A stretch of 64,000 nucleotides of DNA, taken from Eledone cirrhosa (lineage: Eukaryota). Made by a program: the position numbers and the translations under genes. The notes under the pieces are model-generated. The model was not told where the DNA came from. It did not search any database and saw nothing but the letters and a program-made list of their open reading frames with translations. Location: the NCBI GenBank assembly GCA_964016885.1, contig OZ024742.1, forward strand, positions 358,422,001 through 358,486,000. The letters are read 5' to 3'. Each line of letters starts with the position of its first letter. The first letter of the stretch is position 1. This document shows, one piece after another, positions 392-64,000 of this stretch.

Positions 392-480
392 TTAATACTA
401 CTTGAAAGGGAAATAAACTCCAGGCTAAAGAGTCTCTAGTCTCAAGAAAGACTAAACCTTTAAACTTGTGTCTGAATATA

Positions 481-590: not shown

Positions 591-3500
591 CAAAGTGAAC
601 AATAATTAATTCACAGGGATTTATCTTAACCATTCAGTTATCAACATGTCCAAAACTGGCGTTGGTTCTATGAAATAAAACTATTTATCACTTTAGTTAT
701 CAACATGTCCAAAACTGGCTTTGGTTCTATGAAATAAAACTGTTTTATCCCTTTCAGTTACCAACATGTCCAAAACTGGCTTTGGTTCTATGAAATAAAA
801 ATGTTATCTCTTTAGTTATCAACATATCCAAAACTGGCTTTGGTTCAATGTAATAAAACTGTTTTATCCCTTTAGTTACCAACATGTCCAAAACTGGCTT
901 TGGTTCTATGAAATAAAACTGTTTTATCCCTTTCAGTTACCAACATGTCCAAAACTGGCTTTGGTTCTATGAAATAAAACTGTTTTATCCATTTCAGTTA
1001 CCAACATGTCTAAAACTAGCTTTGGTTCTATGTAATAAAACAGTTTTATCCCTTTAGTTACCAACATGTCCAAAAGTGGCTTGGTTCTATGAAATAAAAC
1101 TGTTTTATCCCTTTAGTTACCAACATGTCCAAAACTGGGTCTCGTTCTATGAAATAAAACTGTTTATCCCTTTAGTTACCAAACCAGCTAAAAAAAGCTC
1201 TGGTTCTATGAAATAAAACTGTTTTAGCCCTTTAGATATCAACACGGACAAAACCAGCTGTGATTCTATGAAATAAAACTGTTGCATCCGTTTACTTATC
1301 AACCCGGCCAAAACTGGCTTTGGTTTTATGAAATATAACTATTTTATCACTTTAGCTACCAACATGTCTAAAACTGGCTTTGGTTCTATGAAATAAAACT
1401 GTTTTATCCCTTTAGTTACCAACATGTCCAAAACTTGTTCTGGTTCTATGAAATAAAACTGTTTTATCCCTTTAGTTACCAACATGTCCAAAACTTGTTC
1501 TGGTTCTATGAAATAAAACTATTTTATCCCATTAGTTACCAAACCAGCTAAGAAAAGCTATGGTTCTATGAAATAAAACTGTTTAGTTATCAATCCGGCC
1601 AAAACCGGCTCTGATTCTATGAAATAAATCTGTTTCATCCCTTTATTTATCAACCCGGCCAAAACTGGCTTTGTTTCTATGATATAAAACTGTTGTATCC
1701 CTTTAGTTACCAACATGTCCAAAACTGACTTTGGTTCTATGAAATAAAACTGTTGTATCCCTTTAGTATCAACATGTCCAAAACTGGCTCTGGTTCTATG
1801 AAATAAAACTGTTTTATTCCTTTCAGTTACCAACATGTTCAAAACTGGCTATGGTTCTATGTAATAAAACTGTTTTATCCCTTTCAGTTGCCAACAGGCC
1901 CAAAACTGGCTCTGGTTCTATGGAATAACTGTTTTATCCCTTTAGTTATCAACATGTCCAAAACTGGCTCTGGTTCTATGTAATAAAATTGTTGTATCCC
2001 TTTAGTTATCAACCCGGCCAAAACTGGCTCTGGTTCTATGAAATAAAACAGTTTTATCCCCTTAGTTACCAACATGTCCAAAAGTGGTTTTGGTTCTATG
2101 AAATAAAACTGTTTTATCCCTTTAGTTATCAACATGTCCAAAACTGGCTCTGGTTCTATGAAATAGAATTGTTTTATCCCCTTAGTTACCAACATATCCA
2201 AAACTGGATCTGGTTCTATGAAATAAAACCGTTCTATCACCTTAGTTATCAACATGTCCAAAACTGGTTTTGGTTCTATAAAATAAAACTGTTTTATCCC
2301 TTTAGTTATCAACCCGGCCAAAATTGGCTTTGGTTCTATGAAATAAAACTGTTTTATCCCTTTAGTTACCAACATGTCCAAAGCTGGCTTTGGTTCTATG
2401 AAATGAAAATCTTTTATCCCTTTCAATTACCAACATGTCCTCAACTGGCTTTGGTTCTATGTAATAAAATTGTTTTATCCCTTTAGTTACCAAACCAGCT
2501 AAAAAAAGCTCTGGTTCTATGAAATATAACTGTTTTAGCCCTGTAGTTTTCAACACGGCGAAAACCAGCACTGATTCTATGAAATAAAACAGTTTCATCC
2601 CTTTAATTATCAACCCGGCCAAAACTGGCTTTGGTTCTATGAAATAAAACTGTTTTATCCCTTTAGTTACCAACATGTCCAAAACTGGCTTTGGTTTTAT
2701 GAAATAAAAATGCTTTATCCCTTCAGCTACCAACATGTCCAAAACTGGCTTTGGTTCTATGAAATAAAACTGTTTTATCCCTTTAGATACCAACAGGCTT
2801 AAAACTGGCTCTGTTTCTATGAAATAAAACTGTTTTATCCCCTTAGTTACCAACATATCCAAAACTGGTTTTAGTTCTATGAAATAAAACTGGTTTAACC
2901 CTTTAGTTATCAACATGTCCAAAACTAGCTATGGTTCTATGTAATAAAACTGTTTTAGCCATTTAGTTATCAACCCGGCCAAAACCAGCTCTGATTCTAT
3001 GAAATAAAACTGTTTCATCCCTTTAATTATCAACCAGGCCAAAACTGGCTTTAGTTCTATGACATAAAACTGTTTTATCCCATTAGTTACCAAACCAGCT
3101 AAAAAAGCTCTGGTTCTATGAAATAAAACTGTTTTAGCCCTTTAGTTATCAACCCGGCCCAAACCAGCTCTGATTCTATGAAATAAATCTGTTTTATCCC
3201 CTCAGTTACCAACATATCCAAAACTGGCTCTGGCTCTATGAAATAAAATTGTTTTATCCCCTTAGTTACCAACATATCCAAAACTGGATCTGGTTTTATG
3301 AAATAAAACTGTTATATCCACTTAGTTATCAACATGTCCAAAACTGGTTTTGGTTCTATAAAATAAAACTGTTTTATCCCTTTAGTTATCGACCCAGCCA
3401 AAATTGGCTTTGGTTCTATGAAATAAAACTGTTTTATACCTTTAGTTACCAACATGTCCAAAGCTGGCTTTGGTTCTATGAAATGAAAATGTTTTATCCC

Positions 3501-6500
3501 TTTCAATTACCAACATGTCCTCAACTGGCTTTGGTTCTATGTAATAAAACTGTTTTATCCCTTTAGTTACCAAACCAGCTAAAAAAAGCTCTGGTTCTAT
3601 GAAATAAAATTGTTTTATCCCCTTAGTTACCAACATATCCAAAATTGGCTCTGGTTCTATGAAATAAAACTGTTTTATCCCCTTATTTATCAACATGTCC
3701 AAAACTGGCTTCGGTTCTATGAAATAAAACTGTTTTATCCCATTAGTTACCAACATGTCCAAAACTGGCTTTGGTTCTATGAAATAAAACTGTTGTATTC
3801 CTTTCAGTTACCAACATGTCCCATACTGGCTCTGGTTCTATGAAATAAAACTGTTTTATCCATTTCAGTTACCAACATGTCCAAAACTGGCTTTGGTTCT
3901 ATGAAATAAAACTGTTTTATCCATTTCAGTTACCAACATATCTAAAACTAGCTTTGGTTCTATGTAATAAAACAGTTTTATCCCTTTAGTTACCAACATG
4001 TCCAAAAGTGGCTTGGTTCTATGAAATAAAACTGTTTTATCCCTTTAGTTACCAACATGTCCAAAACTGGGTCTCGTTCTATGAAATAAAACTGTTTATC
4101 CCTTTAGTTACCAAACCAGCTAAAAAAAACTCTGGTTCTATGAAATAAAACTGTTTTATCCCATTAGTTACCAACATGTCCAAAACTGGCTTTGGTTCTA
4201 TGAAATAAAACTGTTGTATTCCTTTCAGTTACCAACATGTCCCATACTGGTTCTGGTTCTATGAAATAAAACTGTTTTATCCATTTCAGTTACCAACATG
4301 TCCCAAACTAGCTTTGGTCCTATGTAATAAAACAATTTTATCCCTTTAGTTACCAACATGTCCAAAACTGGCTTTGGTTCTATGAAATAAAACTGTTTTA
4401 TCCCTTTAGTTACCAACATGTCCAAAACTGGGCCTCGTTCTACGAAATAAAACTGATTTATCCCTTTAGTTACCAAACCAGCTAAAAAAAGCTCTGGTTC
4501 TATGAAATAAAACTGTTTTAGCCCTTTAGATATCCACACGGACAAAACCAGCTGTGATTCTATGAAATAAAACTGTTGCATCCGTATAGTTATCAACCCG
4601 GCCAAAACTGGCTTTCGTTTTATGAAATAAAACTATTTTATCACTTTAGTTACCAACATGTCTAAAACTGGCTTTGGTTCTATGAAATAAAACTGTTTTA
4701 TCCTTTTAGTTACCAACATGGCCAAAACTGGTTCTGGTTCTATGAAATAAAACTGTTTTATCCCATTAGTTACCAAACCAGCTAAAAAAAGCTCTGGTTC
4801 TATGAAATAAAACTGTTTTATCCCTTTAGTTACCAACATGTCCAAAACTGACTTTGGTTCTATGAAATAAAACTGTTTTATCCCTTTAGTATCAACATGT
4901 CCAAAACTGGCTCTGGCTCTATGAAATAAAACTGTTTTATCACTTTAGTTATCAACATGTCCAAAACTGGTTTCGGTTCTATGAAATAAAACTGTTTTAT
5001 CCCTTTAGTTATAGACCCGGCCAAAACTGGCTTTCGTTCTATGAAATAAAACAGTTGTATCCCTTTCAGTTACCAACATGTTCAAAACTGGCTATGGTTC
5101 TATGTAATAAAACTGATTTATCCCTTTCAGTTACCAACATGTCCAAAACTGTCTCCGGTTCTATGGAATAACTGTTGTATCCCTTTAGTTATCAACATGT
5201 CCAAAACTCGCTTTGGTTCTATGTAATAAAACTGTTTTATCTCTTTAGTTATCAACATGTCCAAAACTGGCTCTGGTTCTATGAAATAAAACTGTTTTAT
5301 CCCCTTAGTTACCAACATATCCAAAACTGGTTTTAGTTCTATGAAAAAAAACTGTTTAACCCTTTAGTTATCAACATGTCCAAAACTAGCTTTGGTTCTA
5401 TGTAATAAAACTGTTTTGGCCATTTAGTTATCGAACCGGCCAAAACTGGCTTTGGTTCCATGAAATAAAACTGTTTTATCCCTTTCAGTTACCAACATGT
5501 CCAAAACTGGCTTTGGTTCTATGAAATAAAACTGTTTTATCCCTTTAGTTACCAACATGTCCAAAATTGGGTCTCGTTCTATGAAATAAAACTGATTTAT
5601 CCCTTTAGTTACCAAACCAGCTAAAAAAAGCTCTGGTTCTATGAAATAAAACTGTTTTAGCCCTTTAGTTATCAACCCGGACAAAACTGGCTTTGGTTCT
5701 ATGAAATAAAACTTTTTTATCCTTTTAGTTACCAACATGTCCAAAACTGGCTTTGGTTTTATGAAATAAAACTGTTTTATCCCTTTCAGTTACCAACATG
5801 TCTAAATCTGGCTTTGGTTCTATGAAATAAAACTGTTTTATCCCTTTAGTTACCAACATGTCCAAAACTTGTTCTTGTTCTGTGAAATAAAACTGTTTTA
5901 TCCCATTACTTATCAAACCAGCTAAAAAAAGCTCTGGTTCTATGAAATAAAACTCTTTTAGCCCTTTAGTTATCAATCCGGCCGAAACCGGCTCTGATTC
6001 TATGAAATAAATCTGTTTCATCCCTCTATTTAGCAACCCGGCCAAAACTGCCTTTGGTTCTATGAAATAAAACTGTTTTATCCCTTTAGTTACCAACATG
6101 TCCAAAACTGACTTTGGTTCTATGAAATAAAACTGTTTTATCCCTTTAGTATCAACATGTCCAAAACTGGGTCTGGTTCTATGAAATAAAACTGTTTTAT
6201 CCCTTTAGTTACCAACATGTCCAAAACTGGGTCTCGTTCTATGAAATAAAACTGATTTATCCCTTTAGTTACCAAACCAGCTAAAAACAGCTCTGGTTCT
6301 ATGAAATAAAACTGTTTTAGCCCTTTAGATATCAACACGGACAAAACCAGCTGTGATTCTATGAAATAAAATTGTTGCATCCGTTTAGTTATCAACCCGG
6401 CCAAAACTGGTTTTGGTTTTATGAAATAAAACTATTTTATCACTTTAGCTACCAACATGTCTAAAACTGGCTTTGGTTCTATGAAATAAAACTGTTTTAT

Positions 6501-8399
6501 CCCTTTAGTTACCAACATGTCCAAAACTTGTTCTTGTTCTGTGAAATAAAACTGTTTTATCCCATTACTTATCAGACCAGCTAAAAAAAGCTCTGGTTCT
6601 ATGAAATAAAACTGTTTTAGCCCTTTAGTTATCAATCCGGCCAAAACCGGCTCTGATTCTATAAAATAAATCTGTTTCATCCCTTTATTTATCAACCCGG
6701 CCAAAACTGGCTTTGGTTCTATGAAATAAAACTGTTTTATCCCTTTAGTTACCAACATGTCCAAAACTGACTTTGGTTCTATGATATAAAACTGTTTTAT
6801 CCCTTTAGTATCAACATGTCCAAAACTGGCTCTGGTTCTTTGAAATAAAACTGTTTTATCCCTTTCAGTTACCAACATGTTCAAAACTGGCTATGGTTCT
6901 ATGTAATAAAACTGTTTTATCCCTTTCAGTTACCAACAGGTCCAAAACTGGCTCTGGTTCTATGAAATAAAACAGTTTTATCCCCTTAGTTACCAACATG
7001 TCCAAAAGTGGTTTTGGTTCTATGAAATAAAACTGTTGTATCCCTTTAATTATCAACATGTCCAAAACTGGCTCTGGTTCTATGAAATAAAACTGTTTTA
7101 TCCCTTTAGTTATCAACATGTCCAAAACTGGCTCTGGTTCTATGAAATAGAATAGTTTTATCCCCTTAGTTACCAACATATCCAAAACTGGATCTGGTTC
7201 TATGAAATAAAACCGTTCTATCACCTTAGTTACCATCATGTCCAAAACTGGTTTTGGTTCTATAAAATAAAACTGTTTTATCCCTTTAGTTATCGACCCG
7301 GCCAAAATCTGCTTTGGTTCTATGAAATAAAACTGTTTTATCCCTTTAGTTACCAACATGTCCAAAGCTGGCTTTGGTTCTATGAAATGAAAATCTTTTA
7401 TCCCTTTCAATTACCAACATGTCCTCAACTGGCTTTGGTTCTATGTAATAAAACTGTTTTATCCCTTTAGTTATCAACATGTCCAAAACTGGCTCTGGTT
7501 CTATGAAATAGAATAGTTTTATCCCCTTAGTTACCAACATATCCAAAACTGGATCTGGTTCTATGAAATAAAACCGTTCTATCACCTTAGTTATCAACAT
7601 GTCCAAAACTGGTTTTGGTTCTATAAAATAAAACAGTTTCATCCCTTTAATTATCAACCCGGCCAAAACTGGCTTTGGTTTTATGAAATAAAAATGCTTT
7701 ATCCCTTCAGTTACCAACATGTCCAAAACTGGCTTCGGTTCTATGAAATAAAACTGTTTTATCCCTTTAGATACCAACAGGTCTAAAACTTGCTCTGTTT
7801 CTATGAAATAAAACTGTTTTATCCCCTTAGTTACCAACATATCCAAAACTGGTTTTAGTTCTATGAAATAAAACTGTTTTAACCCTTTAGTTATCAACAT
7901 GTCCAAAACTAGCTTTGGTTCTATGTAATAAAACTGTTTTAGCCATTTAGTTATCAACCCGGCGAAAACCAGCTCTGATTCTATGAAATAAAACTGTTTC
8001 ATCCCTTTAGTTATCAACCAGACCAAAACTGGCTTTAGTTCTATGACATAAAATTGTTTTATCCCATTAGTTACCAAACCAGATAAAAAGTGCTCTGGTT
8101 CTATGCAATAAAACTGTTTTAGCCCTTTAGTTATCAACCCGGCCCAAACCAGCTCTGATTCTATGAAATAAATCTGTTTTATCCCCTCAGTTACCAACAT
8201 ATCCAAAACTGGCTCTGGTTCTATGAAATAAAATTGTTTTATCCCCTTAGTTACCAACATATCCAAAACTGGATCTGGTTTTATGAAATAAAACTGTTAT
8301 ATCCACTTAGTTATCAACATGTCCAAAACTGGTTTTGGTTCTATGAAATAAAACTGTTTTATCCCTTTAGTTACCAACATGTCCAAAACTGACTTTGGT

Positions 8400-11300
8400 T
8401 CTATGAAATAAAACTGTTTTATCCCTTTAGTATCAACATGTCCAAAACTGGCTCTGGTTCTATGAAATAAAACTGTTTTATCCCCTTAGTTACCAACATA
8501 TCCAAAACTGGTTTTAGTTCTATGAAATAAAACTGTTTTAACCCTTTAGTTATCAACATGTCCAAAACTAGCTTTGGTTCTATGTAATAAAACTGTTTTA
8601 GCCATTTAGTTATCGACCCGGCCAAAATTGGCTTTGGTTCTATGAAATAAAACTGTTTTATCCCTTTAGTTACCAACATGTCCAAAGCTGGCTTTGGTTC
8701 TATGAAATGAAAATGTTTTATCCCTTTCAATTACCAACATGTCCTCAACTGGCTTTGGTTCTATGTAATAAAACTGTTTTATCCCTTTAGTTACCAAACC
8801 AGCTAAAAAAAGCTCTGGTTCTATGAAATAAAACTGTTTTAGCCCTTTAGTTATCAACCCGGACAAAACTGGCTTTGGTTCTATGAAATAAAACTTTTTT
8901 ATCCTTTTAGTTACCAACATGTCCAAAACTGGCTTTGGTTTTATGAAATAAAAATGCTTTATCCCTTCAGTTACCAACATGTCCAACACTGGCTTTGGTT
9001 CTATGAAATAAAACTGTTTTATCCCCTTAGTTACCAACATGTACAAAACTGGTTTTCGTTCTATGAAATAAACTGTTTTATCCCTTTAGTATCAACATGT
9101 CCAAAACTGGCTCTGGTTCTATGAAATAAAACTGTTTTTCCCTTTAGTTATCAACATGTCCAAAACTGGTTTTGGTTCTATGAAATTAAACTGTTTTATC
9201 CCTTTAGTTATCGACCCGGCCAAAACTGGATTTGGTTTTATGAAATAAAACAGTTGTATCCCTTTAGTTACCGACATGTCCAAACTGGCTTTGGTTCTAT
9301 GAAATAAAATTGTTTTATCCCTTTCAGTTACCAACATGTTCAAAACTGGCTATGGTGCTATGTATTATAACTGTTTTATCCCTTTCAGTTACCAACGTTT
9401 CCAAACCTGGCTCTGGTTCTATGGTATAACTGTTTTATCCCTTTAGTTATCAACATGTCCAAAACTGGCTTTGGTTCTATGTAATAACACTTTTTTATCC
9501 CTTTAGTTATCAACCCGGCCAAAACTGGCTCTGGTTCTATGAAATAAAACAGTTGTATTCCCTTAGTTACCAACATGTCCAAAAGTGGTTTTGGTTCTAT
9601 GAAATAAAACTGTTTTATCCCTTTAGTTACCAACATGTCCTCAACAGGCTTTGGTTCTATGTAATAAAAATGTTTTAGCACTTTAGTTATCAACACGGCC
9701 AAAACCAGGTCTGATTCTATGAAATAAAACTGTTTCATCACTTTAGATATCAACCCGGCCAAAACTGGTTTTGGTGCTATGAAATAAAACTATTTTATCC
9801 CTTTAGTTACCAACATGTCCAAAACTGGCTTTGGTTTTATGAAATAAAAATGCTTTATCCCTTCAGTTACCAACATGTCCAAAACTGGCTTTGGTTCTAT
9901 TAAATAAAACTGTTTTATCCCTTTCAGTTACCAACATGTCCAAAACTGGCTTTGGTTCTATGAAATAAAACTGTTTTATCTCTTTAGTTATCAACATATC
10001 CCAAACTGGCTTTGGTTCAATGTAATAAAACTGTTTTATACCTTTAGTTACCAACATGTCCAAAACTGGCTTTGGTTCTATGTAATAAAACTGTTTTATC
10101 CCTTTCAGTTACAAACATGTCCAAAACTGTCTTTGGTTCTATGAAATAAAACTGTTTTATCACTTTAGTTACCAACATGTCCATAACTTCTTTGGTTCTA
10201 TGAAATAAAACTGTTGTAATCCTTTCAGTTACCATCATGTCCAAAACTGGCTTTGGTTCTATGAAATAAAACTGTTTTATCCATTTCAGTTACCAACATG
10301 TCCAAAACTAGCTTTGGTTCTATGTAATAAAACTATTTTATCCCTTTAGTTACAAACATGCCAAAACTGCTTTGGTTCTTTGAAATAAAACTGTTTTATC
10401 CCTTTAATTACCAAACCAGCTAAAAAAAGCTCTGGTTCTATGAAATAAAACTGTTTTAGCCATTTAGTTATCAACCCGGCCAAAACCAGCTCTGATTCTA
10501 TGGAATAAAACTGTTTCATCCGTTTAGTTATCAACCAGGCCAAAGCTGGCTTTAGTTCGATGAAATAAAACTGTTGTATCCCTTTAGTTACCAACATGTC
10601 CAAAACTGACTTTGTTTCTATGAAATAAAACAGTTTTATCCCCTTAGTTACCAACATGTACAAAACTGGTTTTCGTTCTATGAAATAAAACTGTTTTATC
10701 TCTTTAGTTATCAACATGTCCAAAACTGGCTCTGGTTCTATGAAATAAAACTGTTTTATCCCTTTAGTTATCAACATGTCCAAAACTGGCTCTGGTTCTA
10801 TGAAATAAAATTGTTTTATCCCCTTAGTTACCAACATATCCAAAATTGGCTCTGGTTCTATGAAATAAAGCTGTTTTATCCGCTTATTTAGCAACATGTC
10901 CAAAACTGGCTTCGGTTCTATGAAATAAAACTGTTTTATCCCTTTAGTTACCAAACCAGCTAAACAAAGCTCTGGGTCTATGAAATAAAACTGTTTTAGC
11001 CATTTAGTTATCAACCCGGGTAAAACCAGCTCTGATTCCATGAAATAAAACTGTTTCATCCGTTTAGTTATCAACCAGGCCAAAACTGGCTTTAGTTCTA
11101 TGAGATAAAACTGTTTTATCCCTTTAGTTACCAACATGTCCAAAACTGACTTTGTTTCTATGAAATAAAACTGTTTTATCCCATTAGTATCAACATGTCC
11201 AAAACTGGCTCTGGTTCTATTAAATAAAACTGTTTTATCCCCTTAGTTACCAACATGTACAAAATTAGTTTTCGTTCTATGAAATAAAACTGTCTTATCT

Positions 11301-19026: not shown

Positions 19027-19089
19027 TTGGTTCTATGAAATAAAACTTTGGTTCTATGAAATAAAACTTTGGTTCTATGAAATAAAACT
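19005..19089. repeat. Mini-array of truncated monomers: 21-bp TTGGTTCTATGAAATAAAACT x3 plus one preceding near-copy
   Basis: Exact copies at 19027-19047, 19048-19068 and 19069-19089, preceded by TTAGTTCTATGAAATAAAACTA at 19005-19026. Confidence 0.95.
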
Positions 19090-22000
19090 ATTTTATTCCT
19101 TTAGTTATCAACATGTCCAAAACTGGATTTGGTTCTATGGAATAAATCTGTTTTATCCCTTTAGTTATCAACATGTCCAAAACTGGATTTGGTTCTATGA
19201 AATAAAACTGTTTTATCCCTTTAGTTATCAACATGTCCAAAACTGGCTTTGGTTCTATGAAATAAAACTATTTTATTCCTTTAGTTATCAACATGTCCAA
19301 AACTGGATTTGGTTCTATGAAATAAATCTGTTTTATCCCTTTAGTTATCAACATGTCCAAAACTGGATTTGGTTCTATGAAATAAAACTGTTTTATCCCT
19401 TTAGTTACCAACATGTCCAAAACTGGCTTTGGTTTATGAAATAAAAATGTTTTATCCCTTTAGTTATCAACATGTCCAAAACTGGTTCTGGTTCTATGAA
19501 ATAAATTGTTTTATCCCTTTAGTTACCAAACCAGCTAAAAAGAGCTCTGGTTCTATGGAATAAATCTGTTTTATCCCTTTAGTTATCAACATGTCCAAAA
19601 CTGGATTTGGTTCTATGAAATAAATCTGTTTTATCCCTTTAGTTATCAACATGTCCAAAACTGGCTTTGGTTCTATGAAATAAAACTGTTTTATCCCTTT
19701 AGTTACCAACATCTCCAAAACTGGCTTTGGTTATATGTAATACAACTGTTTTATCCCTTTCAGTTACCAACATGTCCAAAACTGGCTTTGGTTCTATGAA
19801 ATAAAACTGTTTTATCCATTTACTTATCAACATGTCCAAAATTGGCTTTGGTTCTATGAATTAAAACTGCTGTATCCCTTTAGTTACCAAAATGTCCAAA
19901 ACTGGTTCTGGTTCTATGAAATAGAATTGTTTTATTCCTTTAGCTACCAAACCGCTAAAAAAAGCTCTGGTTCTATGAAATAAATGTTTTAGCCCTTTAG
20001 TTATCAACCCAGCCAAAACCAGCTCTGGTTCTATGAAATAAAACTGTTTTATCCCTTTAATTATCAACCCGGCCAAAATTGATTCTGGTTCTATGGAATA
20101 AAACTGTTTTATCCGTTAGTTATCAACATGTCCAAAATTGGCTTTGGTTCTATGAAATAAAAATGTTTTAACCCTTTTGTTATCAACACGGCCAAAACCA
20201 GCTCTGGTTCTATGAAATAAAACTGTTGTGTCCCTTTCAGTTACCAACATGTCCAAAACTGGCTTTGGTTATATATAATAAAACTGTTTTATCCCTTTCA
20301 GTTAACAACATGTCCAAAACTGGCTTTGGTTCTATAAAATAAACTGTTTCATCCCTTTAGTTATCAACATGTCCAAAATTGGCTTTGGTTCTATGAAATA
20401 AAACTGTTTTATCCCTTTAGCTATAAACATATCCAAAACTGGCTTTGGTTCTATGTAATAAAACTGTTTTATCCCTTTAGTTATCAACCAGGCCAAAACT
20501 GGCTTTGGTTCTATGAAATAAAACTATTTTATCCCTTTATTTACCAATATGTCCAAAACTGGCTTTGGTTCTATGAAATAAAAATATTTTAGCCCTTTAG
20601 TTATCAACCCGGCCCAAACCAGCTCTGGTTCTATGAAATAAAACTGTTGTATACCTTTACTTATCAACCCGTCCAAAATTGGTTCTGGTTCTATGAAATA
20701 AAACTGTTTAATCCCTTTAGTTACCAACATGTCAAAAACTGGCTTTGGTTCTATGAAATAAAACTGTTTTATCACTTTAGTTACCAACATGTCCAAAACT
20801 GACTTTGGTTCTATGAAAGAAAACTGTTTTATCCCTTTCAGTTACCAACATGTCCAAAACTGACTTTGGTTCTATGAAATAAAAATGTTTTATCCCTTTA
20901 GTTATCAACATGTCCAAAACTGGTTCTGGTTCTATGTAATAAAATTGTTTTATCCCTTTAGTTACCAAACCAGCTAAAAAGAGCTCTGGTTCTATGAAAT
21001 AAAACTGTTTTATCCCTTCAATTATCAACCAGGCCAAAATTGGTTCTGGTTCTATGAAATAAAACTGTTTAATCCTTTTAGTTACCAACATCTCCAAAAC
21101 TGGCTTTGGTTCTATGAAATAAAACTGTTTTATCCCTTTCAGTTACCAACATGTCCAAAACTGGCTTTGGTTCTATGAAATAAAACTGTTTTATTCCTTT
21201 AGTTATCAACATGTCCAAAATTGGCTTTGGTTCTATGAAATAAAACTGTTTTATCCCTTTAGCTATAAACATGTCCAAAACTGGCTTTGGTCCTATGTAA
21301 TAAAACTGTTTTATCCCTTTAGTTATCAACCCGGCCAAAACTGTCTTTGGTTCTATGAAATAAAACTATTTTATCCCTTTATTTACCAACATGTCCAAAA
21401 CTGGCTTTGGTTCTATGAAATAAAACTGTTTTATCCCTTTAGTTACCAACAGGTCCAAAACTGGCTCTGGTTATATGTAATAAAACTGTTTTATCACTTT
21501 CAGTTACCAACATGTCCAAAACTGGCTTTGGTTCAATGAAATAAACCTGTCTTATCCCTTTCAGTTACCAACATGTCTAAAACTGGCTTTGGTTCTATGA
21601 AATAAAACTGTTTTATCCCTTTAGCTATAAACATGCCCAAAACTGGCTTTGGTTCTATGTAATAAAACTGTTTTATCCCTTTAGTTATCACCCCTCCCAA
21701 AACTGGCTTTTGTTCTATGAAATAAAACTATTTTATCCCTTTAGTTACCACCATGTCCAAAACTGGCTTTGGTTTTATGAAATGAAACTGTTTTATATCT
21801 TTACTTACCAACATGTCCAAAACTGGGTTTGGTTCTATGAAATAAAACTGTTTTATCCCTTTAGTTATCAACATGTCCAAAATTGGCTTTGGTTCTATGA
21901 AATAAAACTGTTTTATCCCTTTAGCTATAAACATATCCAAAACTGGCTTTGGTTCTATATAATAAAACTGTTTTATCCCTTTACTTATCAACCAGGCCAA

Positions 22001-38961: not shown

Positions 38962-38979
38962 GCTTTGGTTATATATAAT
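38962..38979 (+). repeat. Left target-site duplication of the SINE (GCTTTGGTTATATATAAT)
   Basis: An identical 18-mer lies at 39163-39180. The first GC of the right copy could belong to the SINE 5' end, so the TSD is 16-18 bp. Confidence 0.92.
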
Positions 38980-39162
38980 TGTTTCTACTATTGGCACAAG
39001 GCCAGAAATTATCCAGTACATTACTGGTACTTTATTTTATCGACCCCGTAAGGATGAAAGGCAAAGTTAACCTCGGCGGGATTTGAACTCAGAATAGCAA
39101 GGGCCGTAACTCTATGCATCAAAGCATGGCGTCCGAACCTCTACCGATACTGCCAATCCACC
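38980..39162 (-). mobile_element. tRNA-derived SINE (183 bp) with a Meta/MESC-like central domain, inserted into a satellite monomer
   Basis: This is the only non-satellite sequence in the array. The minus strand reads (GC)GGTGGATTGGCAGTATCGGTAGAG...CTGAGTTCAAATCCCGCCGAGGTTAACTTTGCCTTTCATCCTTACGGGGTCGATAAAATAAAGTACCAG...GGCCTTGTGCCAATAGTAGAAACA. It has Pol III A- and B-box-like motifs in a tRNA-like head and perfect direct repeats on both sides. The Meta/MESC and octopus assignments are from recall, not a search. Confidence 0.9.
39080..39155 (-). promoter_or_regulatory. Internal RNA polymerase III promoter of the SINE (A box ~39144-39155, B box ~39080-39088)
   Basis: On the minus strand, TGGCAGTATCGG is A-box-like and lies ~10 nt from the 5' end, and GTTCAAATC matches the B-box consensus GWTCRANNC. 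Confidence 0.7.
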
Positions 39163-39180
39163 GCTTTGGTTATATATAAT
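39163..39180 (+). repeat. Right target-site duplication of the SINE
   Basis: Identical to 38962-38979. The satellite resumes in register (AAAACTGTTTTATCCCTTTCAG) at 39181. Confidence 0.92.
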
Positions 39181-51600: not shown

Positions 51601-54600
51601 ATTGGCTTTGGTTCTATGAAATAAAACTGTTTTATCCCTTTAGCTATAAACATGTCCAAAACTGGCTTTGGTTCTATCAAATAAAACTGTTTTATCACTT
51701 TAGTTACCAACATGTCCAAAACTGGCTTTGGTTATATGTAATCATTTTTTTTTTATCCCTTTCAGTTACCAACATTTCCAAAACTGGCTTTGGTTCTATG
51801 AAATAAAACTGTTTTATCACTTTAGTTACCAACATGTCCAAAACTGAATTTGGTTCTATGAAATAAAACTGTTTTATCCCTTTAGTTATCAACATGTCCA
51901 AAACTGGCTTTGGTTCTATGTAATAAAACTGTTTTATCCCTTTAGGTATCAACCCGGCCAAAACTGGCTTTGGTTCTATGAAATAAAACTATTTTATTCC
52001 TTTATTTACCAACATGTCCAAAACTGGCTTTGGTTCTATGAAATAAAACTGTTTTATCCCTTTAGTTACCAACATGTCCAAAACTTGTTCTGGTTCTATG
52101 CAATAAAACGGTTTTTTCCGTTTAGTTATCAACATGTTCAAAACTAGCTTTGGTTCTATGAAATAAATCTGTTTTATCCCTTTAGTTATCAACATGTCCA
52201 AAACTGGATTTGGTTCTATGAAATAATACTGTGTTATCCCTTTAGTTACCAGCAGGTCCAAAACTGGCTCTGGTTCTATGTAATAAAACTGTTTTATTCC
52301 TTTCAGTTACCAACATGTCCAAAACTGGCTTTGGTTCTATGAAATAAAACTGTTTTATACCTTTAGCTATAAACATGTCCAAAATTGGCTTTGGTTCTAT
52401 GAAATAAAACTGTTTTATCCCTTTATCTATAAACATGTCCAAAACTGGCTTTGGTTCTATGAAATAAAACTATTTTATCCCTTTAGTTACCAACATGTCC
52501 AAAACTGGCTTTGGTTCTATGAAATAAAACTGTTTTATCTCTTAGATTACCAACATGTACAAAACTGGCTTTGGTTCTATGACATAAAACTGTTTTGTCC
52601 CTTTAGTTACCAACAGGTCCAAAACTGGCTTTGGTTCTATGAAATAAAACTATTTTATCCCTTTAGTTACCAACATGTCCAAAACTGGCTTTGGTTCTAT
52701 GAAATAAAACTGTTTTATCCCTTTATCTATAAACATGTCCAAAACTGGCTTTAGTTCTATGTAATAAAACTATTTTATCCCTTTAGTTATCAACCCGGTC
52801 AAAACTGGCTTTGGTTCTATGAAATAAAACTATTTTATCCCTTCATTTACCAATATGTCCAAAACTGGCTTTTGTTCTATGAAATAAAACTGTTTTATCC
52901 CTTTAGTTACCAACATGTCCAAAACTTGTTCTGGTTCTATGAAATAAAACGGTTTTATCCGTTTAGTTATCAACATGTCCAAAACTGGCTTTGGTTCTAT
53001 GAAATAATACTGTTTTATCCCTTTAGTTACCAACATGTCCAAAACTGGCTTTGGTTTCATGAAATAAAACTGTTTTATCCCTTTAGTTACCAACAGGTCC
53101 AAAACTGGCTCTGGTTCTATGTAATACAACTGTTTTATCCCTTTCAGTTACCAACATGTCCAAAACTGGCTTTGGTTCTATGAAATAAAACTGTTTTTCC
53201 CTTTAGTTATTAACATGTCCAAAACTGGCTTTGGTTCTATGAAATAAACCTGTTTTATCCCTTTAGCTATAAACATGTCCAAAACTGGCTTTGGTTCTAT
53301 GAAATAAATCTGTTTTATCCCTTTAGTTATCACCCCTCCTAAAACTGGCTTTTATTCTATGAAATAAAACTAATTTATCCCTTTAGTTACCACCATGTCC
53401 ACAACTGGCTTTGGTTTTATGAAATAAAAATGTTTTATATCTTTAATTACCAACATGTCCAAAACTGGCTTTGGTTCTATGAAATAAAACTGTTTTATCT
53501 CTTTAGTTACCAACATGTACAAAACTGGCTTTGGTTCTATGACATAAAACTGTTTTATCCATTTAGTTACCAACAGGTCAAAAACTGGCTTTGGTTCTAT
53601 GAAATAAAACTATTTTATCCCTTTCAGTTACCAACATGTCCAAAACTGGCTTTGGTTCTATGAAATAAAACTGCTGTATCCCTTTAGTTACCAACATGTC
53701 CAAAACTTGTTCTGGTTCTATGAAATAAAACGGTTTTATCCGTTTAGTTATCAACATGTCCAAAACTGGCTTTGGTTCTATGAAATAATACTGTTTTATC
53801 CCTTTAGTTACCAACATGTCCAAAACTGGCTTTGGTTTCATGAAATAAAAACTGTTTTATCCCTTTACTTACCAACAGGTCCAAAACTGGCTCTGGTTCT
53901 ATGTAATAAAACTGTTTTATCCCTTTCAGTTACCAACATGTCCAAAACTGGCTTTGGTTCTATGAAATAAAACTGTTTTTCCCTTTAGTTATTAACATGT
54001 CCAAAACTGGCTTTGGTTCTATGAAATAAACCTGTTTTATCCCTTTAGCTATAAACATGTCCAAAACTGGCTTTGGTTCTATGTAATAAAACTGTTTTAT
54101 CCCTTTAGTTATCACCCCTCCCAAAACTGGCTTTTATTCTATGAAATAAAACTAATTTATCCCTTTAGTTACCACCATGTCCAAAACTGGCTTTGGTTTT
54201 ATGAAATAAAAATGTTTTATATCTTTAATTACCAACATATCCAAAACTGGCTTTGGTTTTATGAAATAAAACTGTTTTATATCTTTACTTAGCAACATGT
54301 CCAAAACTGGGTTTGGTTCTATGAAATAAAACTGTTTTATCTCTTTAGTTACCAACATGTACAACACTGGCTTTGGTTCTATGACATAAAACTGTTTTCT
54401 GCCTTTAGTTACCAACAGGTCCGAAACTGGCTTTGGTTCTATGAAATAAAACTATTTTATCCCTTTAGTTACCAACATGTCCAAAACTGGCTTTGGTTTC
54501 ATGAAATAAAAACTGTTTTATCCCTTTAGTTACCAACAGGTCCAAAACTGGCTCTGGTTCTATGTAATAAAACTGTTTTATCCCTTTCAGTTACCAACAT

Positions 54601-55502
54601 GTCCAAAACTGGCTTTGGTTCTATGAAATAAAACTGTTTTTCCCTTTAGTTATTAACATGTCCAAAACTGGCTTTGGTTCTATGAAATAAAACTGTGTTA
54701 TCCCTTTAGCTATAAACATGTCCAAAACTGGCTTTGGTTCTATGTAATAAAACTGTTTTATCCCTTTAGTTATCACCCCTCCCAAAACTGGCTTTTATTC
54801 TATGAAATAAAACTAATTTATCCCTTTAGTTACCACCATGTCCAAAACTGGCTTTGGTTTTATGAAATAAAAATGTTTTATATCTTTAATTACCAACATG
54901 TCCAAAACTGGCTTTGGTTCTATGAAATAAAACTGTTTTATCTCTTTAGTTACCAACATGTACAAAACTGGCTTTGGTTCTATGACATAAAACTGTTTTA
55001 TCCCTTTAGTTACCAACAGGTCAAAAACTGGCTTTGGTTCTATGAAATAAAACTATTTTATCCCTTTCAGTTACCAACATGTCCAAAACTGGCTTTGGTT
55101 CTATGAAATAAAACTGCTGTATCCCTTTAGTTACCAACATGTCCAAAACTGGCTTTGGTTCTATGAAATAAGAATATTTTATCCCATTAGTTACAAACAT
55201 GTCCAAAACTGGCTTTGGTTCTATGAAATAAAAATGTTTTAACCCTTTAGTTAAAAAAAGCTCTGGTTCTATGAAATACAACTGTTTTAGCCCTTTAATT
55301 ATCAACCCAGACAAAACCAGCTCTGGTTCTATGAAATAAAACTGTTTCATCCCTTTAATTATCAACCCGGCCAAAACTGGTTCTGGTTCTATGAAATAAA
55401 ACAGTTTTATCCCTTTAGTTATCAACATGTCCAAAATTGGCTTTGGTTCTATGAAATAAAACTGTTTTATCCCTTTAGTTACCAACAGGTCAAAAACTGG
55501 CT

Positions 55503-55550
55503 TTGGTTCTATGAAATAAAATTAATTTGGTTCTATGAAATAAAATTAAT
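55503..55550. repeat. 24-bp direct duplication TTGGTTCTATGAAATAAAATTAAT x2 replacing part of a monomer
   Basis: Copies at 55503-55526 and 55527-55550, after which the array resumes at TACCAACATG. Confidence 0.92.
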
Positions 55551-58506
55551 TACCAACATGTCCAAAACTGGCTTTGGTTCTATGTAATAAAACTGTTTTA
55601 TCCCTTTAGTTACCAACATGTCCAAAACTGGCTTTGGTTCTATGAAATAAAACTGTTTTATAATTTTCAGTTACCAACATGTCCCAAACTGGCTTTGGTT
55701 CTATGAAATAAAACTGCTGTATCCCTTTAGTTATCAACATGTCCAAAACTGGCTTTGGTTCTATGAAATAAAACTGTTTTATCCCTTTAGTTACCAACAT
55801 GTCCAAAACTTGTTCTGGTTCTATGCAATAAAACGGTTTTTTCCGTTTAGTTATCAACATGTTCAAAACTAGCTTTGGTTCTATGAAATAAATCTGTTTT
55901 ATCCCTTTAGTTATCAACATGTCCAAAACTGGATTTGGTTCTATGAAATAATACTGTGTTATCCCTTTAGTTACCAGCAGGTCCAAAACTGGCTCTGGTT
56001 CTATGTAATAAAACTGTTTTATTCCTTTCAGTTACCAACATGTCCAAAACTGGCTTTGGTTCTATGAAATAAAACTGTTTTATACCTTTAGCTATAAACA
56101 TGTCCAAAATTGGCTTTGGTTCTATGAAATAAAACTGTTTTATCCCTTTATCTATAAACATGTCCAAAACTGGCTTTGGTTCTATGAAATAAAACTATTT
56201 TATCCCTTTAGTTACCAACATGTCCCAAACTGGCTTTGGTTCTATGAAATAAAACTGTTTTATCTCTTAGATTACCAACATGTACAAAACTGGCTTTGGT
56301 TCTATGACATAAAACTGTTTTGTCCCTTTAGTTACCAACAGGTCCAAAACTGGCTTTGGTTCTATGAAATAAAACTATTTTATCCCTTTAGTTACCAACA
56401 TGTCCAAAACTGGCTTTGGTTCTATGAAATAAAACTGTTTTATCCCTTTATCTATAAACATGTCCAAAACTGGCTTTGGTTCTATGTAATAAAACTATTT
56501 TATCCCTTTAGTTATCAACCCGGTCAAAACTGGCTTTGGTTCTATGAAATAAAACTATTTTATCCCTTCATTTACCAATATGTCCAAAACTGGCTTTGGT
56601 TCTATGAAATAAAACTGTTTTATCCCTTTAGTTACCAACATGTCCAAAACTTGTTCTGGTTCTATGAAATAAAACGGTTTTATCCGTTTAGTTATCAACA
56701 TGTCCAAAACTGGCTTTGGTTCTATGAAATAATACTGTTTTATCCCTTTAGTTACCAACATGTCCAAAACTGGCTTTGGTTTCATGAAATAAAACTGTTT
56801 TATCCCTTTAGTTACCAACAGGTCCAAAACTGGCTCTGGTTCTATGTAATACAACTGTTTTATCCCTTTCAGTTACCAACATGTCCAAAACTGGCTTTGG
56901 TTCTATGAAATAAAACTGTTTTTCCCTTTAGTTATTAACATGTCCAAAACTGGCTTTGGTTCTATGAAATAAACCTGTTTTATCCCTTTAGCTATAAACA
57001 TGTCCAAAACTGGCTTTGGTTCTATGAAATAAATCTGTTTTATCCCTTTAGTTATCACCCCTCCTAAAACTGGCTTTTATTCTATGAAATAAAACTAATT
57101 TATCCCTTTAGTTACCACCATGTCCAAAACTGGCTTTGGTTTTATGAAATAAAAATGTTTTATATCTTTAATTACCAACATGTCCAAAACTGGCTTTGGT
57201 TCTATGAAATAAAACTGTTTTATCTCTTTAGTTACCAACATGTACAAAACTGGCTTTGGTTCTATGACATAAAACTGTTTTATCCATTTAGTTACCAACA
57301 GGTCAAAAACTGGCTTTGGTTCTATGAAATAAATCTATTTTATCCCTTTCAGTTACCAACATGTCCAAAACTGGCTTTGGTTCTATGAAATAAAACTGCT
57401 GTATCCCTTTAGTTACCAACATGTCCAAAACTTGTTCTGGTTCTATGAAATAAAACGGTTTTATCCGTTTAGTTATCAACATGTCCAAAACTGGCTTTGG
57501 TTCTATGAAATAATACTCTTTTATCCCTTTAGTTACCAACATGTCCAAAACTGGCTTTGGTTTCATGAAATAAAAACTGTTTTATCCCTTTAGTTACCAA
57601 CAGGTCCAAAACTGGCTCTGGTTCTATGTAATAAAACTGTTTTATCCCTTTCAGTTACCAACATGTCCAAAACTGGCTTTGGTTCTATGAAATAAAACTG
57701 TTTTTCCCTTTAGTTATTAACATGTCCAAAACTGGCTTTGGTTCTATGAAATAAACCTGTTTTATCCCTTTAGCTATAAACATGTCCAAAACTGGCTTTG
57801 GTTCTATGTAATAAAACTGTTTTATCCCTTTAGTTATCACCCCTCCCAAAACTGGCTTTTATTCTATGAAATAAAACTAATTTATCCCTTTAGTTACCAC
57901 CATGTCCAAAACTGGCTTTGGTTTTATGAAATAAAAATGTTTTATATCTTTAATTACCAACATGTCCAAAACTGGCTTTGGTTCTATGAAATAAAACTGT
58001 TTTATCTCTTTAGTTACCAACATGTACAAAACTGGCTTTGGTTCTATGACATAAAACTGTTTTATCCCTTTAGTTACCAACAGGTCAAAAACTGGCTTTG
58101 GTTCTATGAAATAAAACTATTTTATCCCTTTCAGTTACCAACATGTCCAAAACTGGCTTTGGTTCTATGAAATAAGAATATTTTATCCCATTAGTTACAA
58201 ACATGTCCAAAACTGGCTTTGGTTCTATGAAATAAAAATGTTTTAACCCTTTAGTTAAAAAAAGCTCTGGTTCTATGAAATACAACTGTTTTAGCCCTTT
58301 AATTATCAACCCAGACAAAACCAGCTCTGGTTCTATGAAATAAAACTGTTTCATCCCTTTAATTATCAACCCGGCCAAAACTGGTTCTGGTTCTATGAAA
58401 TAAAACAGTTTTATCCCTTTAGTTATCAACATGTCCAAAATTGGCTTTGGTTCTATGAAATAAAACTGTTTTATCCCTTTAGTTACCAACAGGTCAAAAA
58501 CTGGCT

Positions 58507-58554
58507 TTGGTTCTATGAAATAAAATTAATTTGGTTCTATGAAATAAAATTAAT
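58507..58554. repeat. Second copy of the 24-bp x2 scar (offset 3004)
   Basis: Identical to 55503-55550, with identical flanks. Confidence 0.92.
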
Positions 58555-61500
58555 TACCAACATGTCCAAAACTGGCTTTGGTTCTATGTAATAAAACTGT
58601 TTTATCCCTTTAGTTACCAACATGTCCAAAACTGGCTTTGGTTCTATGAAATAAAACTGTTTTATAATTTTCAGTTACCAACATGTCCCAAACTGGCTTT
58701 GGTTCTATGAAATAAAACTGCTGTATCCCTTTAGTTATCAACATGTCCAAAACTGGCTTTGGTTCTATGTAATAAAAATGTTTTATCCCTTTAGTTATCA
58801 ACATGTCCAAAACTGGTTCTGGTTCTATAAAATAGAATTGTTTTATCCCTTTAGTTACCAAACCGCTAAAAAAAGCTCTGGTTCTATGAAATAAAACTGT
58901 TTTAGCACTTTAGTTATCAACACGGCCAAAACCAGCTCTGGTTCTATGAAATAAAACTGTTTTATCCCTTTAATTATCAACCCGGTCAAAATTGGTTCTG
59001 GTTCTATGAAATAAAACTGTTTAATCCCTTTAGTTACCAACGTGTCCAAAACTGGCTTTGGTTCTATGAAATAAAACTGTTTTATCACTTTAGTTACCAA
59101 CATGTCCAAAACTGACTTTGGTTCTATGAAATAAAACTGTTTTATTCCTTTAGTTATCAACATGTCCAAAACTGGCTCTGGTTCTATGAAATAAAACTGT
59201 TGTATCCATTTTGTTACCAACATGTCAAAAACTGGCTTTGGTTCTATGAAATAAAAATGTTTTATCCCTTTAGTTATCAACATGTCCAAAACTGGTTCTG
59301 GTTCTATGAAATAAAATTGTTTTTTCCCTTTAGTTACCAAACCAGCTAAAAAGTGCTCTGGTTCTATGAAATAAAACTGTTTTAGCCCTTTAGTTATCAA
59401 CCAGGCCAAAACCAGCTCTGGTTCTATGAAATAAAACTGTTTTATCCCTTCAATTATCAACCCGGCCAAAATTGGTTATGGTTCTATGAAATAAAACTGT
59501 TTTATACCTTTAGGTACCAACATGTCCAAAACTGGCTTTGGTTATATATAATAAAACTGATGTATCCCTTTCAGTTACCAACATGTCCAAAACTGGCTTT
59601 GGTTCTATGAAATAAAACTGTTTTATCCCTTTAGTTATCAACATGTCCAAAACTGGCTTTGGTTCTATGTAATAAAACTGTTTTATCCCTTCAGTTATCA
59701 ACCAGGCCAAAACTGGCTTTGGTTCTATGAAATAAAACTATTTTATCCCTTTATTTACCAATATGTCCAAAACTGGCTTTGGTTCTATGAGATAAAACTA
59801 TTTGAGCCCTTTAGTTATCAACCCGGCCAAAACCAGCTCTGGTTCTATGAAATAAAACTGTTGTATACCTTTAATTATCAACCCGTCCAAAATTGATTTT
59901 GGTTCTATGAAATAAAACTGTTTTATCCGTTTAGTAACCAACATGTCCAAAACTGGCTTTGGTTCTATGAAATAAAACTGTTTTATACCTTTCAGTTACC
60001 AACAGTCCAAAACTGGCTTTCGTGATATGTAATAAAACTATTGTATCCCTTTAGTTATTAACACGGCCAAAACTGGCTTTTGTTCTATGAAATAAAACTG
60101 TTTTATCCCTTTCAGTTACCAACATGTCCAAAACTGGCTTTGGTTCTATGTAATAAAACTGTTTTATCTCTTTCAGTTACCAACATGTCCAAAACTGTCT
60201 TTGGTTCTATGAATTAAAACTGCTGTATCCCTTTAGTTACCAACATGTCCAAAACTGGCTTTGGTTCTATGAATTAAAATGTTTTATCCCTTTAGTTACT
60301 AAACCAGCTAGAAAAAGCTCTGGTTCTATGAAATAAAACTGTTTTAGCCCTTTAGTTGTCAACGGAGCCAAAACCAGCTCTGGTTCTATGAAATGAAACT
60401 GTTTTATCGATTTAATTATCAACCCGGCCAACATGTATTCTGGTTCTATGAAATAAAACTGTTTTATCCCTTTAGTTATCAACATAACCAAAATTGGCTT
60501 TGGTTCTATGAAATAAAAATATTTTAACCCTTTAGTTATCAACTTGTCCAAAACTGGTTCTGGTTCTATGAAATAGAATTGTTTTATTCCTTTAGTTACC
60601 AAAGCGCTAAAAAAAGCTCTGGTTCTATGAAGTAAAACCGTTTTAGCCCTTTAGTTATCAACCAGGCCAAAACCAGCTCTGGTTCTATGGAATAAAACTG
60701 TTTTATCCCTTCAATTATCAACCTGGCCAAAATTGGTTCTGGTTCTATGAAATAAAACTGTTTTATCCCTTTAGGTACCAACATCTCCAAAACTGGCTTT
60801 GGTTCTATGAAATAAAACTGTTTTATCCCTTTCAGTTACCAACATGTCCAAAACTGGCTTTGGTTATAAGTAATAAAACTGTTTTATCCCTTTCAGTTAC
60901 CAACATGTCCAAAACTGGCTTTGGTTCTATGAAATAAAACTGTTTTATCCCTGTAGTTATCAACATGTCCAAAATTGGCTTTGGTTCTATGAAATAAAAC
61001 TGTTTTATCCCTTTAGCTATAAACATGTCCAAAACTGGCTTTGGTTTTATGTAATAAAACTGTTGTATCCCTTTAGTTATCAACCAGGTCAAAACTGGCT
61101 TTGGTTCTATGAAATAAAACTATTTTATCCCTTTATTTACCAATATGTCCAAAACTGGCTTTGGTTCTATGAAATAAAACTATTTTAGCCCTTTAGTTAC
61201 CAACCCGGCCAAAACCAGCTCTGGTTCTATGAAATAAAACTGTTTTATCCCTTTAGTTACCAACATCTCCAAAACTGTCTTTGGTTCTATGAAATAAAAC
61301 TGTTTTATCCCTTTCAGTTACCAACATGTCCAAAACTGGCTTTGGTTATATGTAATAATTTTTTTTTTATCCCTTTCAGTTACCAACATTTCCAAAACTG
61401 GCTTTGGTTCTATGAAATATAACTGTTTTATCACTTTAGTTACCAACATGTCCAAAACTGACTTTGGTTCTATGAAATAAAACTGTTTTATCCCTTTATT

Positions 61501-64000
61501 TATCAACATGTCCAAAACTGGCTTTGGTTCTATGTAATAAAACTGTTTTATCCCTTTAGGTATCAACCCGGCCAAAACTGGCTTTGGTTCTATGAAATAA
61601 AACTGTTTTATCCCTTTAGTTACCAACATGTCCAAAACTTGTTCTGGTTCTATGAAATAAAACGGTTTTTTCCGTTTAGTTATCAACATGTTCAAAACTA
61701 GCTTTGGTTCTATGAAATAATACTGTGTTATCCCTTTAGTTACCAGCAGGTCCAAAACTGGCTCTGGTTCTATGTAATAAAACTGTTTTATTCCTTTCAG
61801 TTACCAACATGTCCAAAACTGGCTTTGGTTCTATGAAATAAAACTGTTTTATACCTTTAGCTATAAACATGTCCAAAATTGGCTTTGGTTCTATGAAATA
61901 AAACTGTTTTATCCCTTTATCTATAAACATGTCCAAAACTGGCTTTGGTTCAATGAAATAAAACTATTTTATCCCTTTAGTTACCAACATGTCCAAAACT
62001 GGCTTTGGTTTTATGAAATAAAACTGTTTTATCTCTTAGATTACCAACATGTACAAAACTGGCTTTGGTTCTATGAAGTACAACTGTTTTATCTCTTAGA
62101 TTACCAACATGTACAAAACTGGCTTTGGTTCTATGACATAAAACTGTTTTGTCCCTTTAGTTACCAACAGGTCCAAAACTGGCTTTGGTTCTATGAAATA
62201 AAACTATTTTATCCCTTTAGTTACCAACATGTCCAGAACTGGCTTTGGTTCTATGAAATAAAACTGTTTTATCCCTTTATCTATAAACATGTCCAAAACT
62301 GGCTTTGGTTCTATGTAATAAAACTATTTTATCCCTTTAGTTATCAACCCGGTCAAAACTGGCTTTGGTTCTATGAAATAAAACTATTTTATCCCTTTAT
62401 TTACCAATATGTCCAAAACTGGCTTTGGTTCTATGAAATAAAACTGTTTTATCCCTTTAGTTACCAACATGTCCAAAACTTGTTCTGGTTCTATGAAATA
62501 AAACGGTTTTATCCGTTTAGTTATCAACATGTCCAAAAGTGGCTTTGGTTCTATGAAATAATACTGTTTTATCCCTTTAGTTACCAACATGTCCAAAACT
62601 GGCTTTGGTTTCATGAAATAAAACTGTTTTATCCCTTTAGTTACCAACAGGTCCAAAACTGGCTCTGGTTCTATGTAATAAAACTGTTTTATCCCTTTCA
62701 GTTACCAACATGTCCAAAACTGGCTTTGGTTCTATGAAATAAAACTGTTTTTCCCTTTAGTTATTAACATGTCCAAAACTGGCTTTGGTTCTATGAAATA
62801 AACCTGTTTTATCCCTTTAGCTATAAACATGACCAAAACTGGCTTTGGTTCTATGTAATAAAACTGTTTTATCCCTTTAGTTATCACCCCTCCCAAAACT
62901 GGCTTTTATTCTATGAAATAAAACTAATTTATCCCTTTAGTTACCACCATGTCCAAAACTGGCTTTGGTTTTATGAAATAAAAATGTTTTATATCTTTAA
63001 TTACCAACATGTCCAAAACTGGCTTTGGTTCTATGAAATAAAACTGTTTTATCTCTTTAGTTACCAACATGTACAAAACTGGCTTTGGTTCTATGACATA
63101 AAACTATTTTATCCCTTTCAGTTACCAACATGTCCAAAACTGGCTTTGGTTCTATGAAATAAAACTGCTGTATCCCTTTAGTTACTAAACCAGCTAAAAA
63201 AAGCTCTGGTTCTATGAAATACAACTGTTTTAGCCCTTTAATTATCAACCCAGACAAAACCAGCTCTGGTTCTATGAAATAAAACTGTTTCATCCCTTTA
63301 ATTATCAACCCGGCCAAAACTGGTTCTGGTTCTATGAAATAAAACAGTTTTATCCCTTTAGTTATCAACATGTCCAAAATTGGCTTTGGTTCTATGAAAT
63401 AAAACTGTGTTATCCCTTTAGTTATCAACATGTCCAAAAATGGCTCTGGTTCTATGAAATTAAACTGTTTTATCCCCTTAGTTACTAACATGTCCAAAAC
63501 TGACTTCGGTTCTATGAAATAAAACTGTTTTATCCCTTTAGTTATCAATATGTCCAAAACTGGCTCTGGTTCTATGAAATAAAACTGTTTTATCCCTTTA
63601 GTTACCAACATGTCCAAAACTGGCTTTGGTTCTATGAAATAAAAATGGTTTATCCCTTTAGGTATCAACATGTCCAAAACTGGTTCTGGTTCTATGAAAT
63701 AAAATTGTTTTATCCCTTTAGTTACCAAACCAGCTAAAAAGAGCTCTGGTTCTATGAAATAAAACTGTTTTATCCCTTCAATTATCAACCCGGCCAAAAT
63801 TGGTTCTGGTTCTATGAAATAAAACTGTTTTATCCCTTCAATTACCAACCCGGCCAAAATTGGTTCTGGTTCTATGAAATAAAACTGTTTTATCCCTTTA
63901 GTTACCAACATCTCCAAAACTGTCTTTGGTTCTATGAAATAAAACTGTTTTATCCCTTTCAGTTACCAACATGTCCTAAACTGGCTTTGGTTCTATAAAA

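Follow-up and report, generated by a model that had tools for sequence, protein, structure and literature searches.

The window analysed here is a 64-kb stretch (G000:C3:358,422,001-358,486,000) of the 3.0-Gb assembly of Eledone cirrhosa. Nearly all of it is taken up by a 60-bp satellite, which sits wholly inside one copy of a MITE (miniature inverted-repeat transposable element) of the piggyBac superfamily, from 630 to 83,883 in a numbering continued past 64,000 (window-extended). Unique upstream sequence gives way to TTAA at 626-629, CCATTCAGTTATCAACATG follows directly, and the array fills the rest of the window. The satellite is placed within a single element by its two boundaries: the first monomer has the phase of a dispersed ~232-bp MITE, starting at its base 1, and the far end consists of the body, right terminal inverted repeat (TIR) and TTAA of that same element. 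The features are as follows.

626..629, plus strand: left target-site TTAA of the host MITE, followed by element base 1.
630..681, plus strand: first monomer head, equivalent to bases 1-52 of the MITE (left TIR plus subterminal sequence), from alignment with 29 dispersed copies.
630..64000 and on to window-extended 83,705, plus strand: the 60-bp satellite, from head detection and Tandem Repeats Finder (TRF).
Window-extended 83,706-83,883 (L012:9706-9883), plus strand: host MITE body and right TIR, from the far-end sequence.
Window-extended 83,884-83,887 (L012:9884-9887), plus strand: right target-site TTAA, from the far-end sequence.
733..747, plus strand: an example of the derived linker, the palindrome ATAAAAC-T-GTTTTAT in place of MITE bases 53-64.
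20168..20223, plus strand: an ancestral-like monomer with a TTAA junction, 91% identical to one dispersed copy of the MITE along 56 bp.
38980..39162, minus strand: an insertion of 183 bp, flanked by a target-site duplication of 18 bp (38962-38979 and 39163-39180).
192..396, plus strand: another TTAA MITE, from a sibling piggyBac family, with ends CCCTTTAGCATT and degenerate AATGCTAAGGGT, found at 39 other loci among 40 scored.

The array is a long head-to-tail run with a fixed monomer and local homogenisation. TRF reports period 60 at 636-38974 and 39163-64000, and adjacent stretches show that the repeat runs 19.7 kb beyond the window end. Head detection from 630 to window-extended 83,705 gave 1,369 heads (~1,370 repeats of ~60 bp, ~83 kb), spaced by 60 nucleotides in 1,055 cases, by 61 in 206 and by 59 in 66. 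Only once in the array, at its far end, is a head followed by the normal head-body linker, and from there the sequence continues through a 166-bp AT-rich body to GGTCATGAAAGGC and TTAA. This body is 91-94% identical to those of 39 other scored loci (best matches). Variants carried by the array majority stand at 70-88% frequency, and no fixed higher-order period was found up to 40 monomers. Recent growth is shown by duplicated blocks, 1-4.4 kb long and 97-99.7% identical, the closest pairs of which could include assembly error. The insertion at 38980-39162, presumably SINE-like (short interspersed element), is the sole one in 83 kb of array and is unduplicated; copies resembling it lie in the flanks of the locus (L013 and L029).

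Short-read contigs from one sample, possibly the source sample itself, cross the left junction without a single difference. Moreover, raw reads from another sample and study under the same species label contain the tandem unit (35 reads, 18 of them reaching back 61 bases), which rules out an assembly artefact as the source of the array, while its exact length comes from the assembly alone. No RNA holder was listed, and no empty insertion site was found, the contigs of other species not covering the flank.

Each monomer is built from MITE bases 1-52 and an 8-bp linker that replaces bases 53-64, which in the MITE end in its first internal TTAA. An earlier reading of this DNA, made from its letters alone (the sequence-only reading), took the monomer to be the terminal ~60 bp of a piggyBac-family MITE amplified more than 1,000 times from a TTAA site, with the rest of the element possibly still in place. 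Copy number, starting point and register are as it described, the far boundary is as it anticipated, and 52 bp do derive from a MITE end; the remaining 8 bp are an altered linker. TTAA-type junctions, which it also saw within the array, are present and rare: the 1,261 scored linkers end in TTAT in 978 cases and in TTAA in nine, the exact palindrome being the commonest form (747). Because the 12 TTAA-CCCTTT sites inside the array cluster into a few sets of near-identical sequence, back-mutation followed by segment duplication is their probable source, and they weigh little as evidence.

Dispersed copies of the host MITE start, directly behind a TTAA, at position 1 of the monomer and continue into the body, as had been anticipated. 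Among 29 fetched copies, ~232 bp long, a TTAA|CC start was seen by eye in 18 and a TTAA end in 28. A scripted count over 47 copies on contig C1, chosen by their head-body junction, found TTAA on the left in 35, on the right in 30 and on both sides in 22. A 27-base head-body junction has 604 exact genome matches, part of them within one array, and a first look at this small, non-coding, uniform and dispersed element gave 3,183 candidates.

Target site, termini and ends shared with transposase-bearing piggyBacs place the host MITE in the piggyBac superfamily. TTAA flanks it on both sides, and its family ends, CCCTTTAGTTACCA and CCCTTTCATGACCA, form a short TIR (11 of 14 positions matching) with the CC[C/T]T motif; the host's own terminal CCC and GGG carry one substitution each. 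The transposase domain PF13843 has 125 matches in the genome, of which 30 were fetched. They include a family of ~2.6-kb elements with ends CCCTTTCGTTACCAA and GGTAACGAAAGGG between TTAAs, and seven elements of one PF13843 family end in CCCTTT(C/T)GTTACCAA and GTAAC(G/A)AAAGGG, 82-86% identical to the MITE head over ~30 bp. At another locus (L136), a 589-amino-acid frame carries PF13843 and PF13842, with the piggyBac transposase piggyBat as its best PDB match, and the right end is 68% identical to the host MITE over the last 222 bp; no MITE-type left end lies within 5.7 kb upstream of this frame. Kolobok elements and their T2 MITEs, which also use TTAA, have AGGRR termini (PMC6004289) and are ruled out by the CCCTTT termini found here.

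The MITE at 192-396, which begins TTAA and CCCTTTAG, was considered as a parent of the array. Its opening 12-mer does recur at all six array positions cited for it and at four more. Its ends, however, match the CCCTTTAGC ends of a second, young piggyBac family encoding a 561-amino-acid protein, and it is rejected as parent in favour of a sibling relationship. This young ~2.6-kb family (L137-L145, L147, L148, L152) includes several copies with 561-amino-acid open frames and may be active, since one pair of copies shows 100% identity across 2,577 bp. Elsewhere, three identical-scoring piggyBac transposase fragments lie 10.4 kb apart (G000:C25:605362-626745), a possible tandem segmental repeat.

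A DNA search with two monomers returned only this array among the matches listed, and junction patterns were therefore used to survey the genome. The 60-bp, palindromic-linker junction is nearly confined to the locus, with 341 of its 342 matches in the giant array. The remaining match lies 10.8 Mb away in a copy with five heads (L169:3610-4195, G000:C3:347.64 Mb), which shares the palindromic linker, carries the TGTTGTAT variant and has TTAT instead of TTAA as its left boundary. TTAT can serve as a piggyBac target. In a sequencing run under another species label, seven contigs were examined; there, contigs combine the 60-bp junction with ancestral-type heads, one having two units 60 bases apart, so the 60-bp seed is likely older than the large expansion. 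The derived part of the array has no depth in these seven contigs, an absence that is no proof.

The unaltered seed of such an array was predicted to be the left TIR joined to the internal TTAA at +61, with a 64-bp period. This junction was then sought and has 324 exact genome matches (control, 0), so the giant array is not a one-off. The first 100 matches represent 23 loci, all inspected. At 21 of these the head is repeated in 2-29 units, mostly ahead of one body, and the other two are sibling MITEs nested in the +61 TTAA, i.e. the internal TTAA is a used target. Arrays of the MITE head start in the same phase, not at random phases, again as the sequence-only reading expected. An 8.3-kb array of 107 heads (L166-L167, G000:C1:415.37-415.38 Mb) has the TIR joined to the second internal TTAA (+76), giving a 78-bp period in which units derived from this MITE measure 78 and 70 bp, and at two loci, each with one body, the left TIR is joined to the TTAA at +120 to form 123-bp dimers. 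Many arrayed loci lie less than 10 Mb from contig ends.

The right TIR is also found joined to the +61 TTAA, with five matches, four of which have a second body start (head-body-body). These five joints (L173-L177, G000:C6:92.9-96.0 Mb) all fall within ~3 Mb, and one of the loci (L176) has a separate array of 19 heads as well; the clustering suggests local hopping or a local hotspot. A sibling piggyBac MITE has contributed its right TIR end to a 26-unit array with a 48-bp period (L228:164-1404, G000:C27:6.35 Mb), in which every unit ends in GGG-TTAA; this array is the mirror image of the giant left-end array.

Divergence between units bears on when these joints arose. Five head dimers differ by 12.0% between their units, against a random-head baseline of 12.9%, and 19 dimers of all classes, from loci that are not all independent, range from 7 to 19% with none under 7%. 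Seeding therefore likely took place while the family was transposing, since the units of a dimer are as divergent as random family copies. By comparison, 14 small arrays are only 1.9-9.1% divergent inside and several have fixed changes of their own, which points to expansion in place and later, likely by unequal exchange. The internal diversity of the giant array is 14.2%, against 14.1% among dispersed heads (30 of 40 scored). A tree of 93 MITE bodies is star-like, with one of 90 branches starred, and is uninformative on whether there was one origin or many. Last heads share a T at +52 in 6 of 18 arrayed loci and in 4 of 29 singles (p=0.15, four loci left unscored), and a dimer master marked by this T is not established.

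The surroundings of the giant array may have contributed to its growth. Tandem repeats make up 63% of the downstream 150 kb, in arrays of 13-29 kb, and 21% of the upstream 80 kb; the extreme size of the array is likely due to the region rather than the monomer. Arrays near the locus (L013-L027, L237-L236) include ~29 kb of GTG-rich, ~13 kb of AAC-rich and ~20 kb of period-27 repeats, as well as a period-52 array of more than 21 kb and, upstream, an 8.7-kb array of period 34. Across 230 kb of flank, those frames of at least 110 amino acids that were inspected resembled simple repeats and mobile-element fragments; short exons may be present.

We favour, with a probability of roughly 0.7, a scheme in which the left end of the MITE was joined to an internal TTAA during the era of transposase activity, some dimers spread, and unequal exchange followed. 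The transposase would have joined one end to the TTAA at +61, by a single-ended or two-molecule reaction or through repair of a transposase break, to give head-head-body with one body. Some head dimers would then have transposed onward as units. In an ancestor of the giant array and the five-head locus, a fold-back template switch could have turned the 12-bp linker into the 8-bp palindrome, and unequal exchange by the host, in a distal region rich in tandem repeats, would have amplified the array. There is precedent for the first step in piggyBac itself, for which 11 of 23 mapped products were single-ended events at TTAA (PMC3952818). The finished array is most likely a by-product without selected function, and it may act as a cluster of transposase-binding sites.

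Several observations weigh against this scheme. Neither of two other predicted joints, between the left TIR and +81 and between the right TIR and the last of the internal TTAAs, had any match, and the exact autonomous parent was not among the 30 of 125 PF13843 matches fetched. The linker of the giant array no longer ends in TTAA, and its descent from the 64-bp joint is inferred. Among 51 loci on C1 chosen regardless of duplication, a test that does not discriminate between routes, five are duplicated and three of these duplications are not TIR-anchored; one non-TIR-anchored class is common to 13 loci on four contigs, and thus duplicated variants can spread as units from one founder. An approximately unbiased (AU) test does not reject one common origin for the 64-bp joint (p=0.192; 14 changes among the 14 arrayed rows, a set that left out the giant array's host row), and a 4-bp TTAA microhomology yields the same joint without transposase.

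The last three of these points also speak for a route with the same anatomy in which transposase-independent slippage or microhomology repair between target and internal TTAAs made the first duplication and ordinary transposition spread one or a few founders. One natural MITE copy holds 160 microhomology pairs of at least four bases, TIR-to-TTAA joints making up a ~9% share, and slippage has been proposed for piggyBac MITE arrays in corals (PMC2872659). Yet slippage should outlast transposition and leave young dimers, which picking loci by exact match would favour, and none of the 19 dimers is young. In addition, three separate left-end joints all lie at exact TIR/TTAA boundaries, and a T before the left TTAA, which would lengthen the microhomology, is not enriched at arrayed loci relative to singles (14 of 31, by eye). 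We regard this route as unlikely. Less probable still is a two-ended nested insertion into an internal TTAA (head-head-body-body) from which recombination later removed one body. Double insertion is known to seed satellites (PMC5932611), the internal TTAA does accept nested elements, and the two units of a dimer are as different as independent copies, with family variants in some cases (L116). The complete four-part structure, however, was seen at none of the 23, five and two junction loci inspected, right-end joints are, where readable, preceded by one head, and head arrays have one body. Finally, capture of a pre-existing satellite monomer by a MITE has been proposed for miDNA4 (as summarised in PMC12628747), and the size of the present array might suggest a selected chromosome element such as a centromere. 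Either is very improbable here, for the monomer holds a TIR common to transposase-bearing piggyBacs, its junction scarcely occurs outside the locus, and the run under another species label has only short ancestral-type units.

If transposase-made joining is taken one step further, one-ended insertion of piggyBac ends into the internal TTAAs of their own MITEs might constitute a repeatable, rule-based satellite generator, whose stages from dimer to TTAA-bounded 83-kb array are preserved in this genome, with unit lengths set by the distance from TIR to internal TTAA (64, 79 and 123 bp for the left end, 48 bp for the sibling right end). We put this forward only tentatively. It predicts which MITEs seed satellites and with what monomer length, and if transposase made the joints, they document in nature the single-ended reactions described for piggyBac vectors. 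Satellites usually lose the traces of their first step, whereas this one genome displays the founder element, both boundaries, the junction, its relative age and a graded series of 2, 3-29, 107 and 1,369 units. Such a readable series makes models of seeding by aberrant transposition, nested insertion or slippage testable, and the more than 20 shorter versions elsewhere likely show how MITE tips seed satellites.

Tetris, a DNA transposon of Drosophila virilis, is reportedly a foldback element whose TIRs already have internal repeats, unlike the host MITE here with its single head. Its TIR-220 satellite resembles the present case in deriving from TIR sequence (PMC4079207), and MITE- and TIR-derived satellites are well known in general (PMC9659126, PMC12628747). 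The coral CMITEs and other piggyBac MITEs share the TTAA target duplication, CC[C/T]T ends and short imperfect TIRs of our element; in corals, autonomous piggyBacs inhabit the same genome and tandem arrays are reported (PMC2872659). Those arrays are short and consist of whole elements, in contrast to the left end alone, repeated over 83 kb inside one element. In Xenopus, Xmix/Xstir and miDNA4 likewise amplify repeats within a MITE, occur as single-unit, short-array and long-array forms and carry duplicated variants along on the element (PMC6004289, PMC9659126, PMC12628747). However, miDNA4 belongs to Tc1/mariner, and in Xmix, a MITE of T2/Kolobok type with AGGRR ends, the amplified part is an internal segment, whereas each unit here starts with the TIR itself. 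The dimers described by McGurk and Barbash in Drosophila also form during activity and expand later by unequal exchange, although they are whole elements placed head to tail around a target-site duplication (PMC5932611), not an end joined to an element-internal target with one body left. Single-ended and bimolecular piggyBac transposition joins one end to a TTAA in the element or in nearby DNA in the same manner, on plasmids in cell culture, and the portions of that report consulted draw no link to satellites (PMC3952818). The main text of an octopus repeat annotation contains no word beginning 'satellite' (PMC13282606), and PMC5715130 and bioRxiv 10.64898/2026.06.30.735501 had nothing further to offer. 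No report of arrays of an end joined to an internal TTAA was found in the literature covered; subscription papers outside that coverage, among them the first descriptions of Xstir and of miDNA4 and the work on partial piggyBac-MITE arrays cited as reference 33 in PMC2872659, may come closer. Compared with known MITE-derived satellites, what is new here is the preserved series of stages and the joint between TIR and internal TTAA.

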